Source of the DNA: Takakia lepidozioides
Taxonomy: Eukaryota; Plantae; Bryophyta
Length of the DNA: 64,000 bases
Direction: 5' to 3'
Assembly: GCA_030704615.1 (NCBI GenBank)
Contig: CM060731.1
Span: 86,552,001-86,616,000, forward strand
Part shown: positions 2,174 through 63,200 of the stretch, one piece after another
Layout of the letters: every line of letters begins with the position of its first letter
How positions within the stretch are numbered: the first letter of the stretch is position 1
Translations under genes and position numbers: made by a program
The notes under the pieces: model-generated
The model's database searches: none
The model's input: only the letters and a program-made list of their open reading frames with translations
What the model was told of the DNA's origin: nothing

Positions 2174-4049
2174 ATGGGGATGAAGAAGGACACTCGAGGG
2201 GGAGGCGTTGCTGGTGGTGGTGGTGGTAGAGGCAAGTTGTGGACGGAGAAGGTAAGCTGCAGTTTTGTTTCTATTTCATGACCTGCACTTAGGCATATGT
2301 GCCATCGCATAAGCCCCACCAAGCTGTTCCTAATCTAGCACCTCCGCCGGCGCAGATGCCTAAGTCACTTCAACTCTCACAGGTTTGTGAATCTCCACAC
2401 ATACACACAACCGTCTCCGCCGGCAGAGACAGCTCTTCCCCTTGGTTTTTTCTGATGCTTGGAAGGGCTGGGCTTGCCCCTCCGCCGGCGCATACCGTTG
2501 GAGCTGGGATGCTCACATGTTTCAGGAAGTGCTCCAACCCGCTCGGAGCATCAACAACGTATGAGCATGCGAAAAAATAAACGGGATGGGCGTATCCGCC
2601 GGTGCATACCCGTGCAGCAGGGCTGCTCAAATGTTTCAGGAAGTTCTCCCATTTTCCCTCTCCTTTGTTTTTCCGCTTACTCAAAAGTTGTTGATGCTCC
2701 GAGCGGGCTGGGATGGCATATTCGCCGGCGCATACCCATTGAGTACATTTTTTTTTGCTCAGCTCATAGGTTTCAGGAACCTCCTGCAAGCGTCTCCGCC
2801 GGCGGGAGACACTGGAGCTTGGTTTTTTGCATATTCCTTGTGTTACGGAAGCTCCAAAGCGCCAAGGCTGCCACCTCTGTCAACGCAGACCCGTGGAGCA
2901 GGGCTGCTCACATATTTCAGGAAGTTCTCCCCCCCTTTTATCTCCTTTGTTTCTTTGCATTCTCATAAGTTGTTGATGCTCCGAGCGGGCTGGGCTGCCA
3001 TATCCGACGGCGCATACCCATTGAGCACAATTTTTTTTTGCTCAGCTCCTAGGTTTTAGGAACCTCCTGCAAGCATCTCCGCCGGCGGAGATGCTTGGAG
3101 CTTGGTTTTTTGTTGTAATTCCTTGTGTTACGTAAGCTCCAAAGTGTCGAGGCTGCCACCTCCATCGGCGCAGGCGCTTGGGGAACCTTCCCTATTTGGT
3201 TGATCACAGTATTCAAGTATCTCAAAGCTTTTACGTTGCCACCTCCACAACTCCACATGCTTCCATAGGCTGGTTTGATCTTTCAAGGGTGCTCATGTAT
3301 GTTTGGCTACAACCTCCTTCCATGGTATGCGCCGGCGCATATGCTTGGAGCTCCTTGAGCAAAAAATTTCTTCAAGGGCCTCAAAGTTGTCAAATTCTGA
3401 GTGGTGCACATACATGTCATATGCGCCGGCGTAGGTGGTCGGAGGTCCTCTGTCGGGATGCTTGGGCCTGTATTCTGCTCCAAGTTGTAAGTTTTGAAAG
3501 ACAAGGATATTCATGGAATTAGTTGACTATCCAAATGCATTTGTTTTCTCATGCAACCATGACACTGAATTGCTCTTTTTACATATATACATTCAACATT
3601 TGCTCTTCTCATACACTGACATCTTGAATGTTTTGGTCTATGGAATTAGGAAATTACTACTACAACTGAAGCTGTGGAGGCCGGGACGCTTGCGACCATT
3701 ATTGACGACATTGATGCAGGGAATTGGGGGGCAGATGAGTATGAAGAGGATACAACATCTAGTGATCCTCTTTCTCTAGATGCCAAACAGACAATTATTT
3801 TGGAAAAGAAACAAGATCTGAATGTAACTTTCAGGTCCCTCCTCATTGAGGATGGAGTTATGGACATTCCATTGTGTCGCATGATTTCTATGCAGGTTGT
3901 TAGGCCTGCCCTTGCCAACGACATCCTAAAGCTTAGATGAGACTTCTACTCTGGATACCATCCAGGAGCAGCCGTGTTCTATGTTTCTGTTGAGGGGATT
4001 GATGGATCTACTATAGATGTGGGTCCTAATATCATCTCTACATGGGATA
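2174..4049 (+). pseudogene. ParB-like cargo gene copy A, 5' half (short exon 2174-2251, long intron, exon about 3650-4049)
   Basis: Donor AG|GTAAGC at 2252. Exon 2 reads DIPLCRMISMQVVRPALANDILKLR*DFYSGYHPGAAVFYVS..STWD, matching DIPLCRMISMPVVRPPLSHDITKLESDFVHGYRLGAQVF(Y)VS..DNWD of copy B. Cut at 4049 by a CACTA terminus. Confidence 0.75.
2341..3435. repeat. Intronic array of about 12 CGCCGGCG-core palindromes inside a ~282-bp higher-order tandem repeat
   Basis: Cores start at 2345, 2418, 2483, 2597, 2723, 2797, 2878, 3005, 3080, 3163, 3330, 3424. Perfect 28-bp palindrome CAAGCATCTCCGCCGGCGGAGATGCTTG at 3070-3097. Confidence 0.9.
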
Positions 4050-4400
4050 CACTACAACAGATTGCGGCTTTTATGACTCCCATGGGTGCGCAGTCATGAC
4101 AGATTTGTGGCAGAAATGCCATTTGCAGTCGTAAAATGCTTTTGAAGTCATAATGCAGGTCTGGAGAAGGCGTATATGTGACTGCATGGCTTCGGACTCT
4201 GCGCAACACAGGTTAAACATGTCTGACCACGAATATTGGCATGGCAGATATGACTACCAGTCACAGTCATGGCTACACTGGAATGACGTGTGCATATTGC
4301 AAGACAGACATATGACTTCATGACTCTCACTCTAATGCATTATGCCAGATCATCACATGGATGAATCATTACATGACTACACGTGTCGACACATGCTTTT
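4050..4400 (+). mobile_element. CACTA (En/Spm) transposon end with subterminal GTCATG/TGACT repeats; inner boundary approximate
   Basis: CACTACAACAGATTGCGGCTTTTA at 4050, preceded by ATA. It matches the terminus at 12304 at 23/24 positions. Confidence 0.75.
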
Positions 4401-5028
4401 CTGGTTATATATATAATATATGAGTATTTATATCTTAAAAAAACGGAGACTCTTACCACTAGAATGAATTAAAAAAAACCCAAAAAAACAAAGATTTAAA
4501 AAAAATCACATCGGCTGGTAAGTGCACAGTGTGTCGCCCTTGTGGTTTGGGGTTCAAACCCGCTGCCCTTATCCCGTGTGTTGGATTGTTTGAGACGGTA
4601 TGTCTTGACGTTGATCGTCATGTAGGTCTTATGGCCCATAAATGAAGGCGGGTGAATTTTTCCCCTCCTCAAGGGCTTGTGGTTTCCTTTAAGAAAATAA
4701 AAAAAATAAAAAAATGGCTTTTAGGGTTTACAAAAAGGTTAAAAAACTTAAAAAGTTGCCCATCACGGTAGCGTGAACAGACTTAGAGCGAGCGGGAGGG
4801 AGAGAGAGAGCGGGCTGGGACTTAGAGCGAGCGAGCGGGAGAGAGGGCAAACATGCATGGAGGCCCGCAGTTGGAGCAACCTTCGCATCTGAAGCAAGCA
4901 GCCCTAGAAACGTAGGATATGTGTGCGAGGAGGTTTCGGTTGGGAGCTCGCCGTTCTTGGGAGAGTCAGCTTCGTCTTAGCAGGCCGTGTTTCAATCTCT
5001 ACCCGCTCGGCCCTGATTTTACAGCACG

Positions 5029-5840
5029 GAGCAGAGCTGGCATGAGTTTCTTAAAGATCCTTCACGATGGTGGGACAACCGCAATCGGAAGGTGTGGCTT
5101 TTTCTTAATGTACGATGTGAAGAAGTTTGTCCATCCTGCAAATGTGGGTTGTTGGCTCCTGTTAATACCATGATTGGTATTCATCCTGATGTTTACAAGG
5201 TTCTTGGGAGAGTTAGCTTGGTCTTAGCATGCCGTGTTTCAATCTCTGCCCACTCAGCTGCACCGTGGTGGTTCTCACTAACCAATCCGACATTACCTAA
5301 CTACAGACACAAGCAGCACACACAAGAGGTCCTCTTGGGTTCATGGTCAGTCAAATCCTTCATGATGGGCATGAACAGGTCGACAATGTGGTGAGGGCAC
5401 CTTCTTCTTCGACCTATTTCAGCCTACTTTGCCCTCTCATCAGACTCGGCCTGAATTTGAATCATGGAGCAGCTGGCATGAGTTTTTTTTAAGATCTTCA
5501 CGAGGGTGCGACCGCAATCGCAAGGTGTGGTTTTTTTTAATGTACGATGTGCAGAATTTTTGTCCATCCTGCAAATGTGGGTTGTTGGCCCATGATTTGA
5601 TATTCTTCCTGATGTTTACAAGGTTTTGGGAGAGTCAGCTTGGTCTTAGCAGACCGTGTTTCAAAGTCCTGCTCAGCTGCAACACTCACTGACCAATGAC
5701 CTACCTGACTACAGACACAAGCATCACACACCAAGGTCAAATCCTCCATGGATCATGACACAAGGTCAAGGACAGTGTGGTGAGGGCACCTTCTTCTTCG
5801 ACCTATTTCAGCATGTTTTGCCCTCTCATCAGACGCCCTG
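5029..5840 (+). pseudogene. Degenerate OSB-like (organellar ssDNA-binding, PDF-motif) gene fragment, two tandem copies
   Basis: EQSWHEFLKDPSRWWDNRNRK|gt at 5029-5091, then TNPTLPNYRHK. This resembles the PDF motif (WxxFFxxPxxWWDNR..K.NP..PDFKHK). A second degenerate copy lies at about 5465-5750. Confidence 0.6.
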
Positions 5841-6589
5841 AGATGCATATTGAATTTTGTAAGTTAGCTCATTACTCGTTGAAGTAGGGTTGGGGGTGTT
5901 TGCTGGAACAATTCTAGGCTGTCATTGTCAGCTGCTAGCAGGAAGGCAAGGATGTATGCATAGATAGCTGAAGGATTTTGTGCAGAGGCATAGATAGCTG
6001 AAGGAGCAGGATGAGTGTGGGCCCAACTTCGTCCAAGAGAGAGATTTTCAAGCTCCATATTTCAAGTGTGTCCAGCCAGGATTTCCTGTGACATTGCCAA
6101 GGCTTTACTCGCAGCACGATGCTTGTAAAGCTTCCTTAGCTGATTGCTGCTGATTATGCTTGAATTATTAGTTTGTAAAGCCAGTTTTGTTTTCATGGTA
6201 ATCAGCTCTCTTGAAAATCTGTAGGTTGCAAGCCATTTACAGCGGGCCGTGGTGTGGTGAAAGACAGCCATTGAAAGTCCTGTGCAAGTTAATACCAGTG
6301 GAGAGCAGAATAAGCTTCATACTTTTGGTGCTAGTTAATGTAGTTGGTGTTTTGGTGAGATTCTGTCTTGGTGTACATGTCTGATAAAGAAAGACGGTAA
6401 TGTTTGTTCTGAAACCTGAAGGCGTGAAATGATTCAAACAACAAGAGCATTACGCGTGTCACAAGTACAAGCTGTAAGAAAGCAAGAGATACATAGTTAT
6501 ACAGTCAGACAAAGTCATCAGTTTGGTGGAATCTCTTGCAATGGCAGAGGGTTGGGAATAGCCAAGTCAGGAGGTGAATGCCTGTCAAA

Positions 6590-7060
6590 TTACCACATGT
6601 CCTTTTGAACACTGCCCCTGCCCTGGTGGACATGTACGCCAATTGTGGGTGCATTGAGGATGCAAGGGAGTGTTCAACACTGTGGCTGAACGAGATGTGT
6701 GGTGTCGTGGAGTGCGATGCTTGCTGGGTATGCACAGCTAGGGTGCGGGATGGAGGCTCCAACCTTTGAGAAATGATGGGGAAGGGGTGAAGGCCGCCGA
6801 CATAACGTTTGTGTGCGTTTGCAGTGCGTCTGCAGCCCTGGAAAAGGGCAAAGAGATCCCAGGTGACATTATCAAATCTACAATTGTACCAGATGTCATC
6901 CTGAACATGGCTCTGGTGGCCATGTATGCTAAATTGGGAGCATTGAGGATGCCAAGGGAGTGTTCACACTATGGCTGAACTAGATGTGTCGTGGAATGCG
7001 ATGCTTGAAGGGTGTGCAGCAGCAGGAGCGCGGGGGATGGGGCTTTGGACACCTGAAAAA
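6590..7060 (+). pseudogene. Degenerate PLS-class pentatricopeptide repeat (PPR) fragment
   Basis: ALVDMYANCGCIEDARE, ADITFVCVCSASAALEKGKEI, ALVAMYAKLG and DVSWNAMLEG lie in shifting frames. Confidence 0.8.
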
Positions 7061-8439
7061 ATGATGGAGAAAAGGAGGGGTACCTTCTTCAACATATTTC
7101 CCTGTTTCCCTGCTAGTGTTTGCTTTGACAATTGTCATTGTCAGTCTCAGCAAGGCGAGGAATGCATGATTTGTGCATGATAGCTGAAGGAGCAGGGATT
7201 TCGTGTGGCATTCATCCCAGATTTCAAAGCACAAGATCAATAGCTGAACCCCCTGGAGGGAGTAGCGGTCAATAGCGGCACAAGTGATAAAATTAGGCAG
7301 TGCTAATGAAGGCATCTTCTTCAACACATTTCACCCTGTTTTTCCCTCTTATCAGAATCGGCCCTAAATTTACATGTTCAATTCTGCAAGTTAGCTGGTT
7401 GAGTGAATCTAGTTTGGAGTGACTTTGACATGATACTGCCAATGTGACAACAGGAAAGTGTCAAAAAAAAGGTAACAGAGATGAGGAGAAGAAATTCGAA
7501 ATGATGACGATCCCGAAGATAAGCAGGTCGACAACGACTTTTCATGTGAGTAAGTGCTAAACCCTCTTTGGGAGTCATACTCAATTTCTCGATAACATCA
7601 AAGTTACAGTAATAACTTTTTCAGGCTGTCTTTCAGGAAAGGCAGCGGTGGATCTTCAGGAGATACAGTCATTTCTGGCGAGTCTGTTTTCGACAGCCCC
7701 CTTTCCAATTTCTTCTTCCTGTTTATGCCGAGGCAATGGCACTTCACGCGGCCGAGTCCCTATCCCCTGACTTTTTAGTGGCCAGCCGTAGGTGTATCCA
7801 GCGTGGATCCGGTGTTCTAAAATACTTAGACTTAGATGCAGAGGAAGCGGGGATACATTGTACTGACTCTGAGTCAGACTGAACTGTATTCTTTTAATAT
7901 TCATTTTCGTATTATTTGGAAAACGTTGAATCCCCTTCCTCCACCGTAGTTGTTCCTTTAGAACAAATAATAATCACAGAATCACCTTTCGTTTAAATTG
8001 CAATATGTATGAATCCATCTCACAAACCTCCCTGACTCTTCTCATATCCATTGTGCATTCATCTACACTGTATTCATGCGTGCTCCATTCATGAATTTTT
8101 TCCTTTATACAACATCCATTGTACATTCATCCTCTGTACTCTTTAATCCACCCCACAAACCTTCCACACTCATTTCATATACGAGGTGCATTCGTCAAAA
8201 GATTTGGTCATGCATCTTCCTGTCATGAATTTTGTCATTGCTCAACATCCATTATACATCATCCATTTTACCTTATCCATCCCTCATTCATCCATCTACA
8301 TTCATTTTTCACACTCATCCATCTGTTTATCATCCAACTGTACATTCATCCATCCTTTATTCAATGCCTTTTTTATGTCGTCCAGCTTGTTTCCGCGGTA
8401 AAGGGTGCCAATCCGCGGGAATACACTCCACTTCTTTCT

Positions 8440-8566
8440 GGGCGCGTGGTGACGCGGCCTTCACGTGTGATGACGTGGCAGTGTAACCCCGTGACGTGGC
8501 ATTTGCGCAAGGTGACGTGGCGTGAGCGCAGTTGCGCTCACGCGCTCACGTGACCAGGCTCACGCC
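8440..8566 (+). repeat. DNA-transposon terminus ending GCTCACGCC, with TGACGTGGC subterminal repeats
   Basis: Three TGACGTGGC plus GCTCACG repeats. Same terminal structure as 23190-23369. Confidence 0.55.
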
Positions 8567-8569
8567 GAG

Positions 8570-11540
8570 GCATCCCTGAGCTGCCACCACTGGGCCCTCA
8601 TTCACAGGAGCTCTCATCTCATTCTGGTGTCTGATCCAGAATGAATAGGCTGCCTTGCAATGTCCTGTCTGATTACAATAGTAACACAGTTCTTCACCAT
8701 TGGGTCCTCGCCCTTGGTCTGCTCTGGGATTATTTTCTATAATCCTGATTCCCTGCTGGTAATTCCCCCTTGGATTACCCTGATAGTTGCCTCTGGGATT
8801 GCCTTGGTAATTCCCTCTGGATTACCTCTCCCTGCCATACATTGTTATATCCACCAGGCCTACCATAGTGGTCCTGATCATTGTTTCTTCTTGGCTGGGG
8901 CTGCACTGGATGCACCCTCACTTGCCTAGGTTCTCTTGCAGCTGTCCTTCTATTGTAGTAACAATTCTCAGTAGAATGGTTATCCATTTTACAGATAGTA
9001 CAGTGTTTCTCCTTCATGTGGCATTCAGCTGTGGTATGGCCTTCATTCTGGCATTTTGCACACCAAACACCCTTCCTCCAATGTGTTGCAGCCTCTGTGG
9101 CATACTTCTTCAAGATCTCCTCCAGTCTTTTCTCATAGTTTTCCCTCTTCAACTTTTCCTTTTCCTTCCTTTTGTGCTCTTACTCTTCTTCCTCATCTGA
9201 CTCATCTTCAGAGTCCTCATCATCCATTTTCTCTCTTCTGAGCATTCCCAATTGCTCAATTTTGTTGGCTGTTTCAAATGCCTCCTCCACTGTATTATGG
9301 GGTAACATATCCACTTTCTTTTGTAATTCAGGTCTTAATCCACTCACAAACCAGGTCTTCTGTAACCCTGGTGCTGGTACAACAGCCAACTTTTTCATCA
9401 TCAACTCCATCTTTTCCATGTACTCTTCAACAGTTTCATGCTTCTTTTGCCTTAACTGTTATAAACTTCCATACACGTCATCCTCAGTTTTGCTTGTCCT
9501 GAACCTATTTCGGAATGCCGTACTAAGGCCATTCTAGGTTAGGAAATGATTATCAGGAAATCTTGCATACCATTCACTTGCTTTCTTTATAAGTGAACAA
9601 GGAAATAATCTCATCTTGGCATCATCGCCATTCTCATTGTTCACAATACACATGTGCTCAAATTGGCTAATGTGTACATCAGGATCCCCTTTTCCTGTAT
9701 ATATTGGAAAAGGTGGTTTTGCCCGTGTTGGAGGTACCGCCATCTGTGGCCCTACACAGGTGCAGGTCCTCTTTTTGGTGCTGGTCCTTGAGGACCTGTT
9801 GTTGTAGTGGTGGAACTCCCACCAGGTGCTGGCCCCTGAGCACTCCCTGCTACTGGCCCCACTATATTCACAGTATCCCCAGCTCCAGTTGCACTACTTC
9901 CCACACTCCCTGTCCCCCCAGAGCCAGATCCAAGCTTCTCGCCTGATCCCCCTGAGCCGACACCTTCGTTGGTTCGTGATCCAAGTGCTCCACTTGATCC
10001 AGGTCCAACGGGTTGGGATGTCCTGGTTGTAGTCTCAACCTCAACTGTTGGGTCTACTTCTTCATACCCCTCATCTTCCAAATTCTTCTTTCTGTTTTCA
10101 TCCTCCAAGTTCTTCTCTTGGATTTCTTCTTCTTCACTCATGTAACTCAATTGCAATGGTGTTGGAGAGTCTGAACTCTCCGTTGGCTCTGCCACATCTT
10201 CCTCTCCCTCTTTATCTTGTGATTCAGAAACTGGAGTTCCTGCCTTTGGTGTCCCATGCCAACTCTTATCAAAGATTTCTGTCAATCTTTTATCAGGGAT
10301 GTACCTCAGATCTCTCCCCTCATGGCTGATCTTCTTCCTATACCAAATCCCTTAATCTTTCTTATAAGGAATAAGAAGGAGTGGCATCCAACTCTGGTTC
10401 CTCCGGTATGGGTGATGTACTCTTCGATCTTAATGGTGTGAGAGGTCCAGATGATTCTCCTATGACTATTCAGATAATTAGCTTTCAAATAACTTTATCT
10501 TTTTGCTGAATATCTGTGAAGTCTAGCTTCTCTTTCATCACTCATGTCCCATGTCTTTCATATCTTCAATGAGGCAATAACCAAAACTCTCTTCTGTAGT
10601 ATCTCTCGTATATGCCTGGGTTTCTTTCAAGTTTCAATGCATCCTTGGCTATACTAGAAGTTTCTGTTACCATATAACCATATGGCAAGCACATCTGAAA
10701 AGCTGTTCTTGGTGTCAGTTTGATCCACAGGATATCCTTAGGAATCCAATTCTTTACCAATACCAACTCTTCATGCATATGAGTGTAAGCATTCACTTTC
10801 CGTTCCTCCCAGCCTTCAAACTCCACTCGTTTAATGGATAGCAATGCTATCACATAAACCAGCGTTGGTAACCAACTTGCTCTCCCTCTACAGGCCACTT
10901 GATAAATCTTTATCACTCCTTTCTCCAAACCCCACTCAGGATCCGCATCATGTACTCTCTTAAGAATGTTTTCTTTGCAACCGTCTGGCAATTCCAAGAA
11001 TCTCTGAAAGAATTGCTTGGACGACCTTTCTTTCTCAGTTCCACAGGGAATTTGATTCACATCAAATTCTTTAATTTCTCAACCACCATGATCCCACCAG
11101 ATGCCTGTCACATCTGGTTGTTCTTGACCCCGTTCCCCAGTACGGTCGCCAAATGTCGAGCGGCTTCTACTCACCCATCCTTTTGCTATCCGAGTGGGAA
11201 CTCCAAGATAGAAGAGTTGGATATCTCTAAGCACTCAGCCCGCTCAAAACAATCAGTCATGACCTACAGCTAGTGAATCATGGTTGTACTTCCTGTTTGT
11301 ATTTCTTCTTGCCTTCATGTTAGCAAATTACCTTGCTGTGTATACTGAAGCATCAGATTGCTTCAGTATCTATCAGGTTCCATTCACTCATCCATTCATT
11401 CCACAACTTCACTCAAGTCTATCTACACAGTGTGTTTTGTATCGATAAGTATCAGATTTAAGATTTATCAGGTATCAGGCCGAAGCCATGGTGTCTCTAA
11501 TCTGCTCTACAGTATCACTACAGCTTTGCATGTAACAAGC
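8570..11540 (-). mobile_element. Ogre/Tat-like Ty3/gypsy LTR retrotransposon remnant: partial 5' LTR, PBS, upstream ORF, degenerate gag, no pol
   Basis: gag pieces PPFPIYTGKGDPDVHISQFEHMC (9534-9743) and WFVSGLRPELQKKV (9180-9419). Zn knuckles CAKCQNEGHTTAEC, CTICKMDNHSTENC and CYYCNQTGHC. LTR ends ...CA at 11154, next to the PBS. Confidence 0.8.
11134..11151 (-). promoter_or_regulatory. Primer binding site TGGCGACCGTACTGGGGA (tRNA-Arg-like)
   Basis: Follows CA-TT at the LTR end. Same core as 42975-42990. Resembles the Ogre/Tat tRNA-Arg PBS TGGCGACTCCACTGGGGA. Confidence 0.75.
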
Positions 11541-11789
11541 ATCTACTGATCATTCCTCCTCATTTACCGTGCTCTCCATCCTTGCTCCCGTTCTTGCTCT
11601 CCGCCTGATCTCCTTCCATGAATGACCAAGAAGTACTCCCCGTGAAGTGTCCTCTATGATGCTTGCTTTGCCTACGTATGAGCATACGAAAAAATAAACG
11701 GGATGGGAGTGGAGGAGCACTTCCTGAAACATGTGAGCATCCCAACTCCAAAGGTATGCGCCGGCGGAGGTGGCAGCCCAACCCTTATA

Positions 11790-12303
11790 CCAAGTTATAC
11801 CAAGTCTTTTCTGCTTTCTTGATGCATTCGTCGTATTGCTCTTTCCTCAATACATTCTTCCATTCAGAGACAGGTAAGGCCAATCATATTGACCTTGCAA
11901 ACCAAATGCACAAATTTGGATGTAACATTTGCCCTCTTTGTTGCCTTGCACATATAAAATGTGATCATTAGAAAGAAGATGTGTATATGTACATCCATTG
12001 AGCAAGAACATGACAACATTGAACATGAAAGTAAATGAAGAATAGAAAGGAAACTCACACATTCACTCCATCCATGATGGACTTGAGGGAACCACGATTT
12101 TCAATGTCCGCATTGAACACCCAACTTGTCACATAGACATGTCTTGACAAGTTGGCCCCATGAACTTCATTGATATAGGGATACCATGCTTGAAGCCTAT
12201 GATTCCCATCCCGACATGAAACATCTTCCCCCGAAGATGATGCAACTTTGCTTGGACTCAAGATACTTCTCAAACTCATCATTGACTGTTTTCCAATGAC
12301 TAT
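11790..12303 (-). pseudogene. ParB-like cargo gene copy A, displaced and inverted 3' continuation
   Basis: DSHWKTVNDEFE../DGNHRLQAWYPYINEVH..IMDGVN|gtgagt has the same intron position and phase as MHDVNK|gtaagt in copy B. The next exon ATKRANVTSKFVH..KTWYNL matches STEKSHVTTSLVH..GTWYSL. Confidence 0.75.
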
Positions 12304-12700
12304 CACTACAACAAATTGCGGCTTTTACGTCTCTGTGTTATGACTGCAAATGCAGTCATGGAAGCCATTTACCTGACTTCCTGACTCTGGACTAGTCAGT
12401 TGTGACATGGGCAGATATGACTCTCCAGGCTGGCTGTCACGTGGCGCCAGAGCAGCTGTGGGGGTAGTCATACACGCTGGCTTTACTGAATGACTGAACA
12501 GACAGTGTAGTGTCATGTCTTGTGTGCAAGAGTGGCACGTGCTCGATGCAGGAAATGACACGTGGTAGAGTTTAGCTCTCCATGACTGCGAACTATGACT
12601 ACGGTGTGCTAATCCGGTTTGCAACACGTGGCGTTGCAGTTTTTACACACGTGGTCCATCAGCAGATTGACATGTGTCATGATGGGTGTTTTTTTGGGTG
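12304..12700 (+). mobile_element. Second CACTA terminus, partner of 4050, now in inverted orientation; inner boundary approximate
   Basis: CACTACAACAAATTGCGGCTTTTA at 12304, preceded by TAT (ATA on the minus strand, i.e. a 3-bp TSD). Confidence 0.75.
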
Positions 12701-15001: not shown

Positions 15002-15720
15002 TGAATGTCGTCAACGCCATTCAGAACATTCCATTCAATGATAATGTAATACACACCCCAATCCAGGTGAATGCAAATTATCGTTAGGAAGACACAGACA
15101 TAGAAAGTGAATGTCGTCAACGACATTCACTAATGAAGCCAAATTAATACTTAATGAAGCAAAATCACAGGATGGAAATCAAAAATCGAGTAGGAACCCA
15201 CCAGGAAAACTCAATGCACATTCATAACGACATATCACTGAGGACCTCACAACATCACTGTATGTGAATGGCGTCAACGCCATTCACAAAAATACCAAAA
15301 GAAAACCAATTACTTAGCTCCCAATCTATGTAAATTCAATTTGTCGCTGTTGAATAATACAGACACAGCAGGGAATGTCGTCAACGACATTCACTTTGGA
15401 TTTCTCATAACAGAGCTTATCAAGCCTCCAGATTCCTCGCAAGAGGCAAAAACAATGCAGAACAACTGAATGTCTGCATTGACATTCAGCAAAATGAAGT
15501 GAGGAACCCTCACTGTAACCTCTATGGACATTACAAAATTTAACATAACTCCTGAGGACCTCTCAACAATCTCCGTAGGTGAATGTCGTCAACGCCATTC
15601 AAGGACATTATCATTCTAATCAGGGACCAATATAATTGCACCTTAGATCCTAACCAGGTGAATTCATATACTCGCTTAAGAATGACTCAGACAAAGAAGT
15701 GAATGTCGTCAACGACATAC
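15002..15720. repeat. Intronic array of 7 palindromes, consensus TGAATG(T/G)CGTCAACG(A/C)CATTCA
   Basis: Copies start at 15002, 15108, 15265, 15372, 15467 (variant core), 15580, 15700. Spacing 95-157 bp. Confidence 0.92.
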
Positions 15721-23369: not shown

Positions 23370-23527
23370 ATTGCGTCGTTGGTGGCAGCTCATATGGTTA
23401 GGCCATGTTTTGTACCAGAAGTGAGTACAATGATAGTAACCAAAAGCAAAGCTAAACTAGTACCTCCAGTGGATGAGGAAGAAGATGGTAATGAGGATGG
23501 CAGTGATGTGCCTGAAGATGATGAGGC

Positions 23528-49961: not shown

Positions 49962-52900
49962 TCAACGCTTCTTCTGCTTTTGAGGTCGCCCTTCGAAAGC
50001 TGCGACCGCCTCGGATGCGTTTCCCATTTCTGAGGCACGCACCCAAGATGCCTCTACATGATGATAGCCCTTCCATTTGACGAGATACTTCGTTTCTCGG
50101 TTCTTGAACCTCCTTGACTTAAGTATTGCCTCCACCTCGTACTCAGGTTCATTTTCATGATCCAACAGCATAGGTGGCGGACGCAACACTTGATGCCGAT
50201 TCGGACGCGCTTCATCTTTGAAGTAAGGCTTCAAAAAGGAGACATGGAATACTGGGTGCACCTTGCTGTTTGCCGGCAGCTCCAATTCATACACATCCTC
50301 ATTCATAACCTTCCGAATGCGAAAGGGTCCCGCATACGGAGGTACGAACTTCGGACTCACTTCCGGAGGTAGTTGGAAATTCTTGATGTTCAACCAGACC
50401 TCCGTGCCTGCCTCAAACTTCACTTCCCTCCGCTTCCGATTCGCCTGCCTTTCATACCGTTTCCTAGCTTTGGCAATGTTGTATTTTGTGAGCTTCAACA
50501 AACGCTCACGTTCTTCCAGTACTGCCGCTACTGCCGGTTCCTCAACGTCCTGGGCGGCCCAACTTGTCGGCACCAGAGGTGCTTTTCCATAGACCAATAC
50601 GAAAGGGGAAACTCCCGTTGCGGAGTGTTCTGTGTTATTATAACAGAACTCTGCCGCGTCTAAGTGTTCCACCCAGTCTGTTTGGTCTGCCGACACATAA
50701 TTCCGCAAGATCTGCTTCACTACGGAATTCACCCTTTCTGTTTGGCCGTCGGTCGTAGGTCGGAAGGCGGTGCTCATCTTCAGCCTCGTCCCCATCTTCT
50801 TCCAAAGTGCTCTCCAGAATTTACTCGTAAACTTTGGATCGCGGTCCGAGACAATATCCTTTGGGACTCCATGATGCTTTAAGACGTGGGCGAAGTAAAG
50901 TCGCCCTGTCTCCTGCGCCGTTGCCGTCTCCTTGGTGGGGATGAAATGGCCCATTTTACTGAACATATCTACCACCACCATGATTGCATCGAATCCTTTT
51001 GACAGCGGCATAGCAGTCATGAAATCCATCGAGACGCTTTCCCAAGTCCCCTCTGGAATCGGCAAGGGTTGTAACAGCCCCGCTTGCTTTTTGTACTCGC
51101 TCCGGTTTTGTTGGCATGTGGTGCATGTCTTGACATACTCCTCTGCCTCCTCCCTCAGTTTGGGCCAGAAATACTCTTTCTTCAAGAGTGCCGCAGTGCG
51201 CTTGGCTCCGCCATGGCCCGCAAGCGGGCTATCATGGCATTCTCTCAAGAGGCTATCTCTGATCCCTCCCTTCGGCACGTAGAGACGTTTTTGCTTATAC
51301 CGGAGCAGTCCATTTTGCAAGTGGAACTGCGATTTAACCCCCATCCTCAAGTCCTGCATCACGGACTTCGCCAGCTCATCCTTCCGGCAAGCCTTCCAGA
51401 TCTTCCTTTGGAGCGTCGTCTCGCCCTTGTACACCAACAAGAGCTGCTGCTTTCTACTTAAAGCATCGGCCACCACGTTGTCTTGTCCCGGTTTGTACTG
51501 GATATCCACGTCGAACACCGCCAAAGTATCTTGCCACCTAAGTTGTTTTGGGGACAACTTGGGCTGCGTGGCAAAATACTTCACCGTGACATTGTCCGTG
51601 AACACCTTCACTGGGTTGGAACCAACATAGTGGCGCCAGAGCTTGAGACAGTGCACCACCGCCTTCATCTCTTTCTCGTGCGTCGGCCACCGTCGCTCCA
51701 CTTCATTCAGTTTCTTACTTTCGTAAGCCACTGGACGTCCATCTTGCATCAGCACACCACCAATCGCGAAGTCCGACGCATCTGTATGTATCTCAAACGG
51801 ACGATCGAACTCCGGGATTTTCAAGACTGGAGCTTCTGCCATCCGCTGCTTCAATTCGGCAAAAGCTTGGCCACAAAAGGTGTTCCATGCCCAGACTTTA
51901 GATTTACACAGAAGGTCTGACAGCGGCCCCGCAATCTTGGCGAAATTTCTCACATACTTCCGGTAATAGGAGGCGAGTCCTAGGAAGGATCGCACTCCCG
52001 AGACCGAAGTCGGAGGCTCCCAGTCCAAGATCGCCCTCACCTTTCTGTCATCCATTTTGATCCCATCCTGTGTAATCACATGCCCCAAGAACTCCACTTT
52101 CGTGACCCCGAATTCGCACTTTGAAGCTTTGGCGTACAGCTTCCCTTCCCGCAACTTTTGGAACACCCTTTTGAGGTGCTCCAGGTGCTCCTCCTTTGTT
52201 TTCGAGTACACCAAGATGTCGTCGATGTACACGATCACAAAGTCATCCAACCACTCCTGGAAAAGGCTGTTCATCAGCGTGCTAAAGATCGCAGGTGCAT
52301 TGGTGAGCCCAAAAGGCATCACCAAGAACTCATATGAACCATACCTTGTCCTGCACGCGGTCTTCTCCTCATCTCCTTCCGCCACCCGAATTTGGTGATA
52401 GCCGGAGCGCAAGTCGATCCGGCTGAAATACTTTGCTCCTGCCAACCGATCGAAGAGGTCGTCAATCCTTGGCAAAGGGTACCGGTTTTTGATAGTCACC
52501 TTATTCAGAGCCCTGTAATCGACACACATCCGCAGCGTCCCATCCTTCTTGTCTGCAAATAGCACCGGGGCTCCGTAAGGTGACTTACTCAGCCGGATGT
52601 ACCCCTTTGACATTAGATCCTTGAGCTGAGTCTTCAGCTCGACCAACTCTCTATGGCTCAACCGGTAGGGCGCCTTGGTAGGCGGTTCCGATCCCGGTAT
52701 CACCTCAATCTTGTGGTCAACTCCTCTTCACGGTGGCAAGCCGCTTGGTAAATCCTCCGGCATCACATCCTGGTATTTCTCCAAAATCCCCTTGATCCAA
52801 TCTGGGCTCGGCTCCCCATCGCCTTCTCCTTTCACTTCTCTAATGTAAAGCAAAAACTGGGGCTCGTGTGCCTCCTCTACGGCCCACTCCCTTGCTGACA

Positions 52901-54524
52901 GAAGGTTTATTCGCCCTCCCACGGATTTGGGCGTTTCCGACACTCGTAAAACCTTGCCACCATTCCCACATGGCAGCGTGACCACTCTCTTGCGGCCATC
53001 TATGACCGCTCCGGATTTGCTCAAAAAGGTCATCCCCAAAATGAGATCCACTCCATCAATCTCGCAGATGGTGAAGTTCTCACGTCCCTCCCAACTCCCC
53101 AGTTGAAGAGGAACATCAAACGCCAACCTTGTCGCCAACTGTGGTTCTCCTTTGGCAGAACGCACCTCAATAGAGGCCCCCACGTCACTTGTCGGGAGTC
53201 CCAACTTTCGCGCCGTCGCCGGCGTCATGAAGGAGTGTGACGCTCCTGTGTCCACCAACAACGACACGTTAGTTCCGGATATTATCCCATCCACGAACAA
53301 TAACTGACTCCCTTTACGCAGGGCGCCAGTTTCCTGATACAACTCACAAGAATAGTTGCCTACCTTGCAAGTCCTGGCAACCACCGCTTCTACCAAGCGA
53401 CTGATGGTATCTTCCGACAGCTCCGTGGTTGCCCGAGTCATGTTCAATTGACGAGGTTTTGTGCACTTCTTGGCCATGTGCCCGGGCTCCCCGCAATTGA
53501 AACACACTCCATCAAAGGTTGCCTTCTGTCCGCCATAAGCCTCTCCACCCGCTTTTCCTTTCGAAGCACCGGGTGCCGCCTTGACGTGTGAAGGCCCTCC
53601 CTTCGATTTCCACGTGCCATTGTCGCCGCGTGGCCTATCCCACTTCTTTTCCGGTCGGAAGGAGTCACCTTCCCGCCGGGTCTTCTTGTGGTTCAGCTCC
53701 GTACGGCCTTGTCTCTCACCTCTAGGGACATCCGGGAAACATTCAGCCCTCTCAATTGCCTCGTTCAAAGTCTTGGGTGGCTTCTCCTCCAACTTCCGCC
53801 TGGCCCATGGGGCCAGTCCCGCCACAAAGTTGAAGACCATTTATGGTTCTGCCATGTCCGCGACTTCGAGCAACAGCACATTGAAAGCCTGGACATACCC
53901 CCGAATGTCATATGTTTGCTTCAAATTCCTCATCTTGTCCCGGGCAAGCCAGGACGCGTTGAGGGGCACAAACTGTCTCTTCATCAATTCCTTGAACCCA
54001 CTCCAGTTCAAGGTTTCCGGGCTTGGGCCTCGGTCGTGAAGGCGTTTCTGCCACCATTGTTGAGCATAGCCCCTCAAATAGGTGGGAGCCACTTCCACCC
54101 GATCCTCGTCACTCAACTTGGCCGCCCGGAAGTACTGCTCCAGCTCCAGGAGCCAGGTGTTGAGTGCCTTCCGATTTCGGATGCCCTTGAAGGTGCCGGG
54201 TTCCTTAGGCTTCACCTTAAACTTTGCCTTAGTGGAAGTGGCATTAGCCGCCTTCAACACGTCTTTCAACGTCCCGCCAAACTGCGCCAACAACCCTTCC
54301 CAAAAGGCTGCCGGCATGGGAGGCATCTCTTGGTTTGTCGGAGCTCTCAAGGATTCCTCGGGCTCCGACTCCTCGGATTCCTCCCGCTCTTGAGCGGCCT
54401 CGTTTTCGGAAACATTCATCGCTTCCTCAAACGGCCGCCTCGGTGACACGTCACCCCCATCGGGCTCACCAGGATCATCATCTTTTGGGCCGTTCCGCTT
54501 TCGCTTCGGCTTGCCCGACCCCAT
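49962..54524 (-). pseudogene. gag-pol polyprotein (gag, Zn knuckle, protease, RT, RNase H, integrase, chromodomain) with two in-frame stops
   Basis: Single frame. CFNCGEPGHMAKKC, LVDTGAS, YIDD, TDAS, H..H..C..C integrase Zn finger, SDRD, GQTER, and chromodomain [18 protein letters not shown]. Stops at 53841-53843 and 52728-52730. Confidence 0.95.
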
Positions 54525-54564
54525 TCTAGGCCAATCCCAAGGACGATCGCGTACTGAACTCTAA

Positions 54565-54576
54565 GCTCTGATACCA
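54565..54576 (-). promoter_or_regulatory. PBS complementary to tRNA-iMet (TGGTATCAGAGC)
   Basis: GCTCTGATACCA on the + strand, 2 nt from the LTR. Confidence 0.95.
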
Positions 54577-54578
54577 AG

Positions 54579-55380
54579 TGTCGCGCACCTCCCTTCGGTA
54601 AGCTCCCCTTCACGTCATAGTTACTCGCTTTGATGCGCGCGCCTGACTCCCAACCTGGCCGCCGGGCCAACTTGGAGCTTCGGCTGCTCACCGGGACATA
54701 ACGGTCCCCCCCCTTCGCTTCCCACTAAACCCTCCACCTATTTGGGACTAGTGGAATTCCCTTTGGTAGATGGCAGTCCGGAACAACTCCTCACTCTTTG
54801 GTCGCTTTCCGGCTCGCTCGCTTACTCACTAGTTTTTGGTCACCAACGGGCTTGCACCGTTCTCGGGGTTACTACTCCCTATATATACTTCTCGCCCCTT
54901 ACCTTCTCTTCTAGCTCTCCAAAGCTTAAAGATGGAGGCCTAACTAGGCTGAATGCATGCTCCACACATGCTGTTCGCGGGGGTTTCATAACCAGCTATG
55001 CCATTTTATGGCAAACCACCACGAAAACCCTCGACTCCCGGTGATGAGTCGCGGTGAGTCTTGGCTCACTCACCACGGCCCCTATGGACCGTGCTGAGTC
55101 CCAAGACTCCCCACGACTCCCACCACGAGGTCTCCGCCCCCATGGTGAGTCCTATGCCACCCCCACTAAGTCCCGCTAAGCTACCACCACCCCTTGTGGA
55201 GCCACCCCCACCGCAACCCGGTGTGCGGGGCTCCACCTAGTGAGCGCCTCCGCCTCCTTCAGTGCCTTGGGCACTCAAGGGTGCTTCAGCCCCCCATACC
55301 TGTCGCTGCCGATGCCCCCACCACAGGGGCAGCCCCTCATGTGTCCCGACCCCCTGCCCTCAAGGCAAAGGGCCGCGACA
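54579..55380 (-). repeat. 5' LTR (802 bp)
   Basis: TGTCGCGC...CCGCGACA, adjacent to the PBS. Confidence 0.97.
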
Positions 55381-56528: not shown

Positions 56529-58500
56529 GGTGCAGGAAGATAGCGCTCACGCAGGGGCAAACGAAGCACGATGAGGAGGGGAGCTGAGAAGATGAGAGGG
56601 GAGTGGGGAGATGTCACCTTTAATGGGAAATCAAGTAGGCCTCGTTCACTGAAGTAGAATCAGAGCAGCAGCTAATACTATCGGCGCGAACTGAGGCCTG
56701 ACCAAGAGCAATTAATCAGAGCCGCCAAGTCGCCAGGAGGGAGAGGAGGATGGATGAGGAATCAAAGCTTCCAGTAAAGCACACATTTAAAGAGAGGGAG
56801 AAAGGTGGTGGCCGGGTATAACAACGCAGGGCTGACACGCCGCTCGGGGGACAGCAGCAGGGTGCCCAAAACAGAAGGAGATAAAGTATGCCAGATAGAA
56901 GGAGAAGAGTGGGGGAGGAGCGTAGAGGAGGGGCTGCACACAGCGGGAGACCCAAGGAGTTGAGGTAAATGAGAAGCTGGGCGGCGAAGCTAAAAACAGA
57001 CCGCACCAATTGTCGCTTGGCAGAACCTTAAGCAGCCGCAGGATAGGAGAATCTCTAGCAATATCAGAGAGGGGACAAAGGGGAGCTGGAGGAGCTCTGA
57101 GAGATTAGAGAGCGAGGTTGCAGTGGAGAAGAGGTGGGACAGGAGTAATGAGCCGTCCAGTGAGAGAGACGGCGTTGTCTGCATGCGAACAAATAAACAT
57201 TCATCATGCATGCATGTACCCAAGAGCGCGGAGGCGATCTAACCCAAGATCTGCAAGTTTGTGCACGCGCGAGATTGGGACATGTCACACGAAGAGGAGA
57301 GGAGGGAATGAGGGAGGGGCTGTGTGAGGGGTGGGCTTCGAAAAAATTCTAAGTCCCAGCGATCACTCATCGCAGAACGCGGAGCTCTTGGGAGCCCCAT
57401 CCTTGTATGTTTTCAAAATCCTATCTTTCATTTAAAAAAAAATTGAAGATGAAGCCTTAGTTCCCACCGAAATGAGGAGGCATGACGGACTGGAATGTAC
57501 TTGATGGGGGATAGGGGATGGATAGGGTGCTAATTCCAAAAGGCGCGGGCGCAGTAAAACGGAAAAGTGACAGACGGCCTTGCCCGTCCCACAAGCTTGG
57601 GCATCTTACCACGTGGCGCCTCGGCAGTGGCTGTTTTCGTGGGAACCAGGATTGGCGCGTGAGGTCAGAAGCGATGGCAATAATGCAGTATGTATATCGG
57701 GTGGGGCGGCCGATGGATATTAGTTTCCGTGTGAGTGATGGGTTGGGCTGTCCGGCCAGCTATTCTGGCGGTCCGAATAGATGGTGACCTGTTGCGCATT
57801 CTGCGAGACCAGAGTGGCAATGCAATGGCTGGACGGAACGGCGACGGGAAGAGAGGGATAAGAGGGGCTACGGCGAGAAGCCGTCCACGTCCACAGAAAT
57901 CCAGTGGTCCCGAGTGGCGTGGGCAGGCAAGAGATATTTTGACAGGAGGTTCCATGCATGTGTCGAAAGGAGCCATGCCAGTCCATGCCAAACCATTGCC
58001 ATAGCTGCTACCCTTCTCTCCGGGCTCTTGTGCGCTCAATCCATGCACTTTTCCGCTGGCCATCGCAGCACACCGAGCCTTTCTCCCACTGCTCCCTCGA
58101 GTTCTGTGTACCTGTCTGAGAATTTGAGATTTCGCTGTTAGGCTTTACACTCTCTGTCTCTATCAGTCATCTTGTTTGTGGGATTCTGCCATTTTCAACA
58201 TATTTCTTCGCTATATGTACCATTTTACTCCGTGGGGCTATGGTTGGCGCTTGCAGCGCACTTTTCTCGCTCAGTGAGTATCTTGCGCCCTTCTTGGGTG
58301 CCTGAGTATTCGCGTCTCCCTCTTCTCTCTATCTCTATTTTGTGTTTCTTCCTCTTGCAAGTGCGAGTTTGTTTGTTCCTGTCTCATTGTATTGGGTGTT
58401 TCGTCTCCTACTGCATTCACATCCTTGGCGTGTAACTGGAGCTGCGTCCTAGAGTTATGAAGGAGGAAGTACTGAGATAGTACCTATTTGGGCCTTAGTC

Positions 58501-59646
58501 ATGTATTTGCCAGTCACCCAAGAATCGAACCTTGGAGATTTGGAAGACGATAATGAGGACCTCCCTCCGAGGTCGGGGGGTTCCCCTGCCTCACCAGCGG
58601 AGGGATCTCCTGGGAGCAGGGGCGATGGTGGGTGCATTCGTGAGCGACCGGTGAAAGTTATCCCATGCCCTCGATGCCAATCCATGAATACCAAGTTTTG
58701 TTACTACAACAATTACAGTGTCAATCAGCCGAGACACTTCTGCAGAAATTGTCAACGGTACTGGACAGTTGGGGGTACTCTTCGCAACGTACCCGTCGGT
58801 GGGGGATCCAGGAAGAAGAATCGCTCTCGCCATCGCAACGAACCTTACCTCAAAACAGGAGGAACTGTGACAAATCCAGTGGGTGCCAGCCCTTTGCACC
58901 AACAGGTTATGCAGACGGTGAACAGCATGCACCAGCTTTCAATGCTTCCCCACACTGCGGCAGGGGTGAGTTTTGGCAACCAGCTACCCGGATTTCCTCC
59001 TTCCGGTGGCCCGCAAGTCCCCTTTTTGCAGTTCCATAGCATGGACCAAGGCCAGGTGCTGTATACTCCGCCGATTAAGACATTGAGCCAACATGACTCT
59101 GCTGATCTGCATGCAATGTACGAGACGCAGGCTAGCAATTCGGGCCTGCAAAGCAATTCGCCCTTGATGAACAATGGAGGGTATTACTGTCCGGAGATGG
59201 AGGGAAACCACATAGAAGCTCTCGGCCAAGTAGGATTGCACAGAGCTGGTTATTGGGGAAGTCAGGTGCCGCAACATCCGGGTCTCTGCAGCAGGCTCGC
59301 CACAGGTTTGTGGGAGGAGAGCCGATCTGGGCAGACTATCATGTCATCGTCACTCCATAGTGTAGTCGAGGAGGAGAGCAACATTTCTGTAAATCGTCAG
59401 GTGCACAAGGCTGGATACTGGGAAGCTCCGATGGTACAACATCGGGGCAGTAACTCCAGGCCGGGGCTGAGCAAAAGGCCGGGAGCAGGTACCTGGGAGG
59501 AGAAGCAATCTGGGCAGGCTAATACTTCGCCACATGCCAGCAGCACCATAGAAGAGGAAGGCAGCACGCCTTCTAATGGCTACTCTAATAACGGGTACGA
59601 GGACGCCTCTTCATGGGGTATAAACAGTGACATCTATTTTCAGTGA
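58501..59646 (+). CDS. DOF: Dof zinc-finger transcription factor (381 aa)
   Basis: Canonical Dof domain [50 protein letters not shown] in an uninterrupted ORF. An upstream exon cannot be excluded. Confidence 0.95.
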
Positions 59647-61160: not shown

Positions 61161-61187
61161 ATCTGCTTCAGACATTCAAACGAGGTG

Positions 61188-61250
61188 CAAATCTTTATCA
61201 CTCCTTTCTCCAGACCCCACTTTGGATCAGCATCATGCACTCTCCTGATT
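61188..61250 (-). repeat. Fragment of the Ogre-like upstream ORF
   Basis: AAATCTTTATCACTCCTTTCTCCAGACCCCAC matches 10904-10935. Confidence 0.65.
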
Positions 61251-61714
61251 TTGAATTCATCGCTTCGGGAGCTTAAGGGAGGAATGCCAAACCAGGTATT
61301 AAATACAAATTAATACTCAATTGCTTTTTAGGCAGCACAGCTGTCCATAAAACTTGAATCTGCAGTTATCCTTTGCACAGTGACAACATGTCACACTACT
61401 GGCGTTTCTGAATGGGAAATTATCGAGGAACTCGGATAGAACTTGGACTGTTCATGGACAGCTCACACCAAACCTACACTTTCTTTGTTGACATTCCAAT
61501 TGCATTATCTAGTCTAGTGTCACTTTACTGGCTTGTCCCTCATCACGGCCTGCCCATCTCCCATCTCCTGCTGATTTGATTGTGACACTTCTTCACTACC
61601 ATCACTTCAATATCTGATTACCTTTCAAATGCCAAATATTCTTCCATTTGCGATCCTGCTTTGGGAACTGGCTTTCTTTTTTAGATAACCATGCATTGCA
61701 AGTCACTTGCCGTG

Positions 61715-63200
61715 AATCAGAAGCCCGAAATGACTCTGGGGAAGTTGCAGATGCTGGCCACGAGCGAGGTCAGCCTGAAGGAGAAGTGCTTATGGTTGAA
61801 GCTATGGAATTCTGACTCTACAACCCGGAAAAATGCTAAGTTTCCCCATGCTCCCACAGATGTGGTGTTCGGCTTGTGGTGTGACACAATGACAAGGTGG
61901 TTCTAGGTGAGAACCATCCAATACTCCTGGTGACTTCATGTTTGAATTATTGTTGCAATCTATCATCTCTAACAATTGACGTGGACTCGCAGCAAAAAGA
62001 GGAAGCAGAGCGGCAGTTGGCCATGCTGGTTCAGAATGGGTTCCAACCGCGGAAGAGGCACCCACGCTGAAGAGTCTTTCTGTCTGGGTGGACAGTTTCC
62101 GCATCAAGTACTGGAAGGATTTGTTCTGGTATGAGATGAAGGATGGGCCTGCCCAAAGTTGGCTGATTACCGAGCAGCCAGGTGGATCTTTACCAGCTCG
62201 CAGGCTGGTATACAGGTACATTATTATCATTGCAATTCCTTGGCTGGCTTCGCATATGTCACACAGCAAATGGCGCATAGGCACTAGCGGGCGAACTAAC
62301 ATGTGTAGCAAATGCACGTTATAGTCGGCAGACATTCCAATAGTCGGCAATCTTGTTCTTTAGACAAGTGGTCGGCGCCGACTACTGCCGTCTGGAAGGT
62401 GCCGATAGACATGGTAGTCATAGTTGGCAACGACTATAGGGTGCACGTTATAGTCGGCATACATTCCAGTAGTCGGCAGTCTTGTTCATTAGTCAAATGG
62501 TCGGCGCCGACTACAGGACTCGGACATGGTAGTCATAGTCGGCAACGACTATAGGGTGGGGCTGGGGTAGCCATGCGGTATAGTCGACAACGACTTTCGG
62601 AAAGGGCCCCGGACAGAGCCCGGCTAACCCACAGTTGGGAGTCGTAGTCGCCACCGACTATGACACAAACTTTGGCCTATTGGGTGTCATAGTCGCTGCC
62701 GACTATTCCATCTGGGAAGGGAGTACGGCCCAGACATTTGATAGTTTTCTCCATGTCATGGTAATCAGGGCCAATGTCCGTCCTCACGTCAAGTTTTGGT
62801 GCACTGGAACAGGTACATAAACTTTATTTGCTCGCCAGCAAACATATCAGGTGTATGCCAGCCAGTGACACACAGTGGGCCAGCCTCCGTTCAGACTGCA
62901 CAATGTACAACGGGAGGCGGTTAGGCGAGTATGTGAAATTCACGCATATGCCCTGCTACTGGTGGCTGGACTTGCCACCCGATGTCATTCCTGACAAAGA
63001 AGTGGATTTGTACAAGAAATACACCAAGAACGAGCTGCCCGCACCCACACACATGGAGCCATTGACGTAGGAAGGTGCCGAGGAGGCTGCAGTCGTCGCT
63101 GCCGTACACCTTAAGCAAGCCAATACAGCCCTGGAAGCAGCGGTGGCCAAGAAGAAACCCAGGAAAAAAAAACATAAACATAAACAGAAGAAGACAGCCA
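61715..63200 (+). pseudogene. Cargo gene copy C (middle exons only), divergent paralogue of copy B
   Basis: KPEMTLGKLQMLATSEV aligns with HPEMQQEKLHRLAISMV. CYWWLDLPP..MEPLT aligns with CGWYLDFPP..LAPLT, followed by a Lys-rich tract. Intron 62216-62812 splits AG|G-TAC, as does intron 15880-14858. Confidence 0.65.
62320..62706. repeat. Intronic array of (A)TAGTCG-N4-CGACTA(T) palindromes and half-sites
   Basis: Cores at 62373, 62425, 62502, 62540, 62585, 62649, 62694. Half-sites at about 62321, 62341, 62451, 62470. ~129-bp tandem duplication. Confidence 0.88.

Follow-up and report, generated by a model that had tools for sequence, protein, structure and literature searches.

Arrays of CG-N4-CG palindromes in the introns of a transposon cargo gene of Takakia lepidozioides: candidate binding sites for a ParB-like cargo protein

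A 64,000-nucleotide stretch of the Takakia lepidozioides genome (assembly GCA_030704615.1, contig CM060731.1, positions 86,552,001–86,616,000; hereafter the window) contains three related elements, A, B and C, whose palindrome arrays all lie inside predicted introns of one homologous accessory (cargo) gene. The palindromes have a common CG-N4-CG core and arms that differ from element to element. On balance, the sequence patterns described below incline us, if only somewhat, to the view that these arrays are binding sites for the product of the cargo gene itself, a protein with a predicted ParB-like domain and a degenerate amino-methyltransferase-like end that is encoded beside a transposase probably of the Mutator-like element (MULE) type. 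The arrays are likely to be docking sites by which an element recognises and regulates its own copies. The arrays are real and widespread, and apparently undescribed so far; the element was not found in the literature searched, which consisted mostly of the main texts of open-access papers.

Palindrome arrays in elements A, B and C

All three palindrome types named in the original prediction were present at the expected positions (Table 1), whereas the five looser sites in the first intron of B are absent from that description. The C array is predicted to occupy the same intron position as the later array of B. We compared the CG-N4-CG counts with 1000 dinucleotide shuffles of regions that were picked post hoc, with the array positions known. 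The A region contains 12 such cores against a shuffle mean of 2.2, the first intron of B 7 against 1.0 and the later intron of B 6 against 0.4, counts that none of the 1000 shuffles reached; in the C region there are 7 against a mean of 2.2, a count reached by 6 of the 1000 shuffles. When the arms alone were searched for and the core was left free, CG..CG was recovered in 10 of 11 B sites and 6 of 7 C sites, and chance arm matches elsewhere in the window had it in 0 of 11 cases for the B arm and 0 of 20 for the C arm.

The spacing of the two CG dinucleotides was predicted to be fixed, and a four-base centre is indeed found throughout the arrays; the arms are family-specific, as was also proposed, and differ among A, B, C and related loci. 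Variation of the centre, a further part of the same description, is seen within C, within the first intron of B and between families but not within the A array, where 9 of 10 sites have CCGG, or the later B intron, where 6 of 7 have TCAA. The expectation that the motif would be better kept than its spacers agrees with a site-to-site identity of 0.70–0.88, compared with 0.50–0.53 for the 25-base flanks and 0.49 for shuffled sequence. Half-sites mix independently within A and B, as expected of a double-stranded site that is read by two subunits.

The palindromes might instead function at the RNA level, each folding into a hairpin with a four-base loop within the pre-mRNA of the cargo and serving, for instance, the autoregulation of splicing. 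The centre does have the size of a tetraloop, both B arrays are intronic (one is spliced out in a contig that is RNA by guess), and perfect sites fold stably, at -8.7 to -19.8 kcal/mol in 4 of the 7 sites folded. We nevertheless regard this explanation as very improbable, because many sites pair half-sites that are allowed but non-complementary and fold poorly (-4.4 to -6.3 kcal/mol in the other 3 of 7), the arm sequence is kept beyond what pairing alone would demand, and the centres, which are self-complementary in 7 of 11 example motifs, have no need to be so in a loop.

A fourth CG-N4-CG cluster (CG CTCA CG, with a GTGACGTGG arm) occurs twice in the window, at 8460–8590 and 23200–23395, and is near-palindromic at 23275. 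One copy lies just beyond the B transposase, and the cluster may represent terminal repeats or the sites of another family.

Arrays in related loci

Evidence from beyond the window came from related metagenome loci and from sequencing runs, among which X1 and X5 are DNA and the RNA status of X8 and X11 is a guess only. The best 80 of 157 confirmed metagenome loci collapsed to 47 distinct ones, in which intron zones were set after the arrays had first been seen there. Palindromes with a CG/TG/CA-N4-CG/TG/CA core numbered 113 in 128 kb of intron zones (8.8 per 10 kb) and 14 in 122 kb outside them (1.15 per 10 kb), an approximately eightfold enrichment of the four-base centre; the ten other centre lengths gave 0.7–1.7 per 10 kb inside the zones and 0.5–1.8 outside. 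As the original prediction required, the arrays are specific to these introns across the related loci.

An array with a consistent arm was detected in 20 of the 47 loci. The arms vary widely (TATTGG, AGGCCT, AGCATT, AACTTT, TACYTT, TTCTCT and others), one centre length spanning at least ten unrelated arm sequences, and the exact A, B and C motifs of the window occur in none of the related loci examined. Wherever a locus has two arrays, both introns carry the same arm (8 of 8, six identical and two one base off, all from only two arm classes), and the same is true of the two intron arrays of B in the window. The flanks of the two arrays of one locus are 0.31–0.41 identical, against 0.29–0.32 for random pairs, with BLAST matches of at most 52 bp. 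The downstream array precedes the WYLD exon in B and C and follows it in L012 and L023, so the families did not all acquire their arrays in the same intron.

A neutral origin, in which a chance palindrome was duplicated locally, homogenised and then inherited with each family, is improbable in our judgement. It would account for the clear unit duplications (2604–2896 against 2885–3181 in A at 85%; B spacers at about 70%; a 51-bp repeat period in L012, L023 and L058), for the free decay of cores in old copies and for several long loci that have no array. It does not account for a motif that is kept while its flanks approach shuffle identity, for a single centre length over at least ten unrelated arms, or for the same arm in two introns whose spacers are unlike.

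Two palindromes, AGGCCT-CGGATCCG and AGGTTG-CGCAATCG, share one upstream region in L007 (164–730) and also in L008 and L009, possibly a specificity switch in progress. Long imperfect hairpins of AAGCT/GAGCT words, interleaved with CG-N4-CG sites, were observed in the upstream intron of L058 (8700–9220) and L076 (8140–8850).

Organization of the elements

The most complete element is B, in which the cargo gene runs on the minus strand from about 18590 to 13780, head-to-head with the transposase-like gene. Element A is arranged likewise, its transposase being represented by a remnant where the window begins, and C is a 3' fragment. The CACTA ends at 4050 and 12304 face the same way, which indicates that an inversion flipped the 3' half of A exon 2. 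The later methyltransferase-like exons of B were not found within the window.

Table 1. Features of elements A, B and C and of neighbouring sequence (positions in the window)
Feature	Position	Strand	Basis or remark
A transposase remnant, best-matching stretch	190–240	-	tblastx against 19914–19964 (N-terminal part of B transposase); degenerate coding around
A cargo predicted exon 1, ATG to GTAAG donor	2174–2251	+	sequence
A array, 10 sites (TCTC/TATG-type arm)-CG CCGG CG-(arm)	2341–3435 (sites 2345–3424)		predicted intron 1
A cargo exon 2, 5' half of ParB-like domain, cut by CACTA insertion	3650–4049	+	tblastx to B, 57%
CACTA terminus inside A exon 2, target duplication ATA	4050–4075	+	second terminus at 12304
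A-type repeat unit, one site (11759), downstream of inverted exon half	11674–11786	-	92% to 2463–2535
A cargo exon 2, 3' half (DGNHR motif), inverted	12061–12303	-	frame runs on across CACTA junction
B cargo exon, methyltransferase-like motif-IV region (DIVILDIPD)	13778–14100	-	
B cargo exon with WYLD motif	14199–14857	-	
B intron, 7 sites TGAATG(T/G)-CG TCAA CG-(A/C)CATTCA	14858–15802 (sites 15009–15707)	-	later intron
B cargo middle exons, no known family	15803–16862	-	
B cargo exon, predicted ParB/sulfiredoxin-like domain (IPLCR, VVRP, WDGNHR, MHDVN)	16923–17590	-	
B first-intron array, 5 looser sites, same GAATG-type arm	17597–18050 (sites 17604–18036)		
B cargo predicted exon 1	18120–18593	-	
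B transposase-like gene, SWIM finger at C-terminus	19260–22757	+	head-to-head with cargo; homologues in related loci
C cargo exon, homologous to B middle exon, ends LVYR at GT donor	61784–62215	+	tblastx
C intron, 7 full sites RTRGT-CG N4 CG-ACTAY and 4 half-sites	62216–62812 (sites 62373–62694)	+	
C cargo exon with WWLD motif	62813–63240	+	matched by eye to B WYLD exon
Ty3/gypsy-type retroelement, terminal repeats 99% identical	48331–55380		related partial repeat at 63418–63716
Dof zinc-finger transcription factor, intact open reading frame	58453–59646		Pfam E 1e-32

One 465-base contig from run X8 skips 14860–15813, which corresponds to the later intron of B, and this joint was not present in the DNA runs X1 and X5. 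At most of the listed frameshift positions of B, the reading frame is kept by every or almost every X5 contig that covers them, so the breaks look private to the window copy or are assembly errors. Several of its frameshifts are not family-wide, so B is not simply a relic decayed by C-to-T changes. In run X1, 44,123 contigs match B, with a depth of about 3,500–14,700 across both genes that is not to be read as copy number; B belongs to a dispersed multi-copy family. An apparently intact multi-exon cargo gene was observed in L005 (26–3760); it has no array in its downstream introns, and the upstream sequence available there covers 124 bases only.

The N-terminal domain of the cargo protein

Homologues of the cargo comprise nine proteins, and a further search gave 1,097 protein clusters at E values up to 0.001. 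The fold was modelled on the homologue P0001, which is 53% identical to the B exon (predicted local distance difference test score, pLDDT, 77). A Foldseek search with this model returned sulfiredoxin, ParB, Noc and PadC in its top rows, at probabilities of 0.9 or more and E values of 0.08–0.2. In the VIA comparison all 12 rows with Z of 2 or more were of the ParB/sulfiredoxin type; the best was KorB (Z 7.4, root-mean-square deviation 2.7, 89 aligned positions). The modelling thus points to a ParB/sulfiredoxin fold at the N-terminus of the cargo. In 40 homologues the GNHR motif keeps its G, H and R in 90% or more of cases and its N invariably, and residues G163, N164, H165, R166, R82 and N210 are conserved, the last two being matched to ParB boxes by eye. 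No significant family for this domain was recovered in Pfam or PHROGs scans, and none in a PDB profile search.

The superfamily to which the predicted fold would assign the cargo is known for proteins that bind palindromes as dimers. A homodimer prediction scored 0.00 on an uncertain fold and is evidence neither way.

Leads in the ESM Atlas near P0001, the homologue of 16923–17255, included DUF3723 clusters (0.93–0.94, with 31–47% of members carrying the family) and a ParB_N cluster (0.90, 11% of members). DUF3723 is tied by a literature listing to papers on fungal Starships, and the DUF3723 of those elements may share the ParB-type fold; no paper pairing DUF3723 with ParB was found in the literature searched.

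The methyltransferase-like C-terminal end

The last three cargo exons resemble beta-class amino-methyltransferases, with motifs IV, X and I in colinear order, although the match is weak. Pfam N6_N4_Mtase was matched at E 0.0097, below the cut-off, and a PDB search with this end gave DNA methyltransferases in 7 of 14 rows (best E 0.01). With hhalign, two exons that had not been used in selecting the bacterial matches aligned at the expected motifs (P 0.018 and 0.027). Low-scoring ESM Atlas matches include methyltransferase families (0.81–0.84), and a plasmid tblastn search yielded 9 matches at E 2–5, 5 of them annotated as DNA methyltransferases; a phage tblastn search with P0010 and a search with the methyltransferase-like exon of B itself gave no matches. 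The model of this end (pLDDT 37) made its fold search uninformative. In P0092 and P0127 the ParB-like and methyltransferase-like domains are predicted in one chain. On these sequence comparisons, the C-terminus is probably related by fold to beta-class amino-methyltransferases.

Catalytic activity is considerably less probable than the relationship of fold. In place of the catalytic (D/N/S)PP(Y/F/W) motif the family has DIPD, DIPE, DVPS or DVPF, and DIPY occurs in L083, a bacterial record with a methyltransferase annotation. The putative counterpart of the SAM-binding FxGxG motif is DWNASTG in L005 and P0010 and MYAGCG in P0127.

The transposase-like gene

The transposase partner of the cargo is likely to be of the MULE type. 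The SWIM finger of the B gene scores just below the Pfam cut-off (E 0.001; 19.0 bits against 19.6), and, in a comparison by eye with MULE motifs, its FDHVK, ADSA, CLFHW and NLAE were read as the D, D, CxxH and E motifs of such transposases. Pfam gave no match to MULE or GCM families, and the PDB no relevant match. Of the 11 distinct loci whose upstream sequence extends to 8 kb or more, 4 have a head-to-head transposase. Transposases of MULEs have a WRKY-GCM1/catalytic/SWIM layout (PMC1702500).

The arrays could bind the DNA-binding domain of this transposase, which would activate its own copies while the cargo acts otherwise. MULE transposases reportedly activate their cognate copies in a sequence-specific manner (bioRxiv 10.64898/2026.08.24.746577) and, given linkage, the motif would track the transposase just as well as the cargo. 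We hold this to be distinctly unlikely, since the arrays lie in cargo introns and not at the element ends or in the transposase gene, and two-fold symmetric sites suit the ParB-type fold predicted for the cargo.

A second, 5'-truncated transposase of the same kind, with tblastx segments 33–71% identical to that of B and no adjoining cargo, lies at 23525–25440.

CpG cores and protein clades

Retention of CpG in the cores was originally taken as a sign of function, and 53 of 58 core CpGs are kept in the arrays of the window, where the CpG observed/expected ratio is 0.58 overall. Among 159 sites defined by their arms, most of them in low-CpG loci, CG was found at 72 of 318 core dinucleotides and TG or CA at 187 of 318, and each core position departs from CGGCGCCG chiefly through C>T or G>A changes. 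By this pattern the core is probably methylated and decays once it is no longer under selection. In the B family, 37 C>T and G>A differences stand against 31 T>C and A>G among 179 places in run X1, which is no excess of C>T. Given the heavy decay of cores in the relatives and the lack of such an excess in B, we rejected CpG retention as evidence of selection; the retention in the window is in keeping with a young family whose host shows weak decay.

Motif type clusters with the protein clades, as was predicted: in a tree of 48 rows, 20 of them without a motif label and with L079 left out for its short coverage, 8 of the 9 AACTTT rows make up a single well-supported clade, as do 4 of the 6 TACYTT rows. 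Because site and gene are physically linked, linkage alone predicts such clustering, and this tracking was rejected as evidence of co-evolution.

A possible mechanism

The conserved core, fixed spacer, family-specific arms, mixing of half-sites and recurrence in separate introns argue for a two-fold symmetric reader that is encoded by the element. The predicted fold makes the cargo the natural candidate, as does the precedent of VANC, whose motifs are found within introns of genes that the element itself carries (PMC5735166). A cargo dimer would contact the common CG..CG core and read the family arm on either side, and clustering of the sites would let each family selectively recognise its own copies. 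The cargo might then load, perhaps spread in a nucleotide-dependent manner, and keep the element expressible, either through anti-silencing as in VANC or through self-marking by the methyltransferase-like domain; upon the death of an element the methylatable core would be the first to decay. We favour anti-silencing or self-marking, since methylatable cytosines abound in the core and the methyltransferase-like domain has been retained.

These two features also bear on the alternative that the cargo binds the sites as a repressor, or as a synapsis or bridging factor for transposition, rather than in anti-silencing or methylation. ParB-fold proteins such as KorB do regulate genes as clamps (PMC12704722, PMC13229309), and the degenerate state of the methyltransferase-like motifs also speaks for such a role, but retention of that domain across the family and the cytosine-rich common core make it highly doubtful. 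A more elaborate form of the proposal would be a eukaryotic ParB-parS-like system, in which the cargo is a nucleotide-gated DNA clamp whose ancestor was a prokaryotic fusion of ParB with a methyltransferase. Such a clamp would be loaded at the family-specific palindromes of its introns, spread along the element and evade host silencing by writing or reading a base mark other than 5-methylcytosine; we consider this unlikely.

Several observations weigh against cargo binding as the role of the arrays. The fold scores, mutually consistent as they are, are middling (Z below 8 and no Foldseek E below 0.001), and the middle exons of the cargo have no Pfam match; since this region matches no family, the protein has yielded no recognisable DNA-binding domain. 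Profiles of the methyltransferase-like exons did not rank four bacterial methyltransferases above 584 decoy open reading frames in hmmsearch. At the threshold used, 27 of the 47 loci have no array, and while most of these are short contigs, L021, L035, L041, L046 and L070 have long upstream flanks. Two motif types share one intron in L007, and neither the TACYTT nor the TTCTCT label corresponds to a single clade. As to the transposase, 7 of the 11 long loci have none head-to-head with the cargo, and no terminal inverted repeats (TIRs) or target duplication, which in MULEs would measure 8–11 bp, were seen among the 25 longest inverted pairs listed for 12400–23600, L076 and L058, where the ends are possibly truncated; non-TIR MULEs exist.

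Comparison with known systems

Our best reading, by analogy, is that the cargo system works like VANC/VANDAL without being a member of it, and that its protein and site design is ParB/parS-like. VANC carries DUF1985; no Pfam match to the VANC domain was obtained with the cargo pieces or homologues, direct alignment to VANC being outside the comparison, and the cargo differs from VANC in its predicted ParB/sulfiredoxin-like fold and methyltransferase-like end. The likeness lies in a Mu-like element (here a probable one) with an accessory gene and in dense family-specific motifs that spread by tandem duplication in non-coding parts, including the accessory introns (PMC5735166). The VANC motifs (YAGTATTAY, AGTTGTCC) are non-palindromic and in one orientation, whereas those described here are palindromes of 16–26 bp with a common CG-N4-CG core; the main text of that paper does not contain the word palindrome. 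Demethylation by VANC has been demonstrated (PMC5735166); for the cargo it would be a candidate activity.

With ParB-parS, Noc-NBS and KorB the cargo shares its predicted fold, a GxxR-type motif and clustered palindromic sites linked to the gene (PMC12704722). It differs in being eukaryotic, intron-containing and carried on a transposon, and in a long insertion in the fold; unlike in ParB-parS, no helix-turn-helix or dimerisation domain was identified in Pfam searches, which gave no match in the middle exons. No ParA-like open reading frame was noticed in the elements, for which no profile search for ParA was made. Phage fusions of ParB with N6_N4 methyltransferases combine the same two domain types that are predicted in one chain here, and the main text that describes them contains neither of the words plant and transposon (PMC12704722). 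The cargo departs from these fusions in its altered motifs (DIP/DVP for DPPY; WNASTG or YAGCG for FxGxG) and in the long middle region between the domains, and no significant PHROGs or phage tblastn match was found for it.

The rotifer N4CMT is reportedly a horizontally acquired N4-cytosine methyltransferase with a bacterial-type beta-class fold in a eukaryote. A horizontally acquired bacterial-type beta-class amino-methyltransferase fold in a eukaryote is also represented by MpDN4MT1, compared here by description, which is a host gene with an intact TSPPY and not a degenerate transposon cargo; the text on it does not mention ParB (bioRxiv 10.1101/2021.02.12.428880). Eukaryotic amino-methyltransferases with ParB-type helix-turn-helix fusions have been described in chlorophytes and chytrids, with few such enzymes in land plants (PMC4738411), and ParB-like activators of phage DNA-modifying enzymes are also on record (PMC13229309). 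Spm TnpA resembles the present system in that clustered family-specific motifs are read by an element-encoded regulator, but it belongs to the CACTA superfamily, has terminal motifs and is a transposase-derived regulator (bioRxiv 10.64898/2026.08.24.746577). The cargo type described here is not among the accessory MULE open reading frames in the accessible part of the survey in PMC6446971.

Only a few systems (VANC, TnpA) are established in which an accessory protein of a transposon regulates its own element in a sequence-specific way. The present one, if our reading is correct, would be an independent solution to self-recognition built from bacterial-type parts, and eukaryotic chromatin would then include a ParB-fold protein together with palindromic sites of its own. 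With at least ten arms on one core and 1,097 protein clusters, it would also provide a natural series for protein-site specificity.

Other features of the window

The window is nuclear DNA of a plant, as its Dof gene, its retroelements (Table 1) and its CpG ratio show. It also contains host gene fragments at 28022–31214 that resemble, by eye and in their motifs, a xyloglucan endotransglucosylase/hydrolase. A complex tandem repeat region with periods of 62–107 bp lies at 32780–34620, and a local duplication of 97–99% identity, which includes an inverted segment, at 36295–42123.

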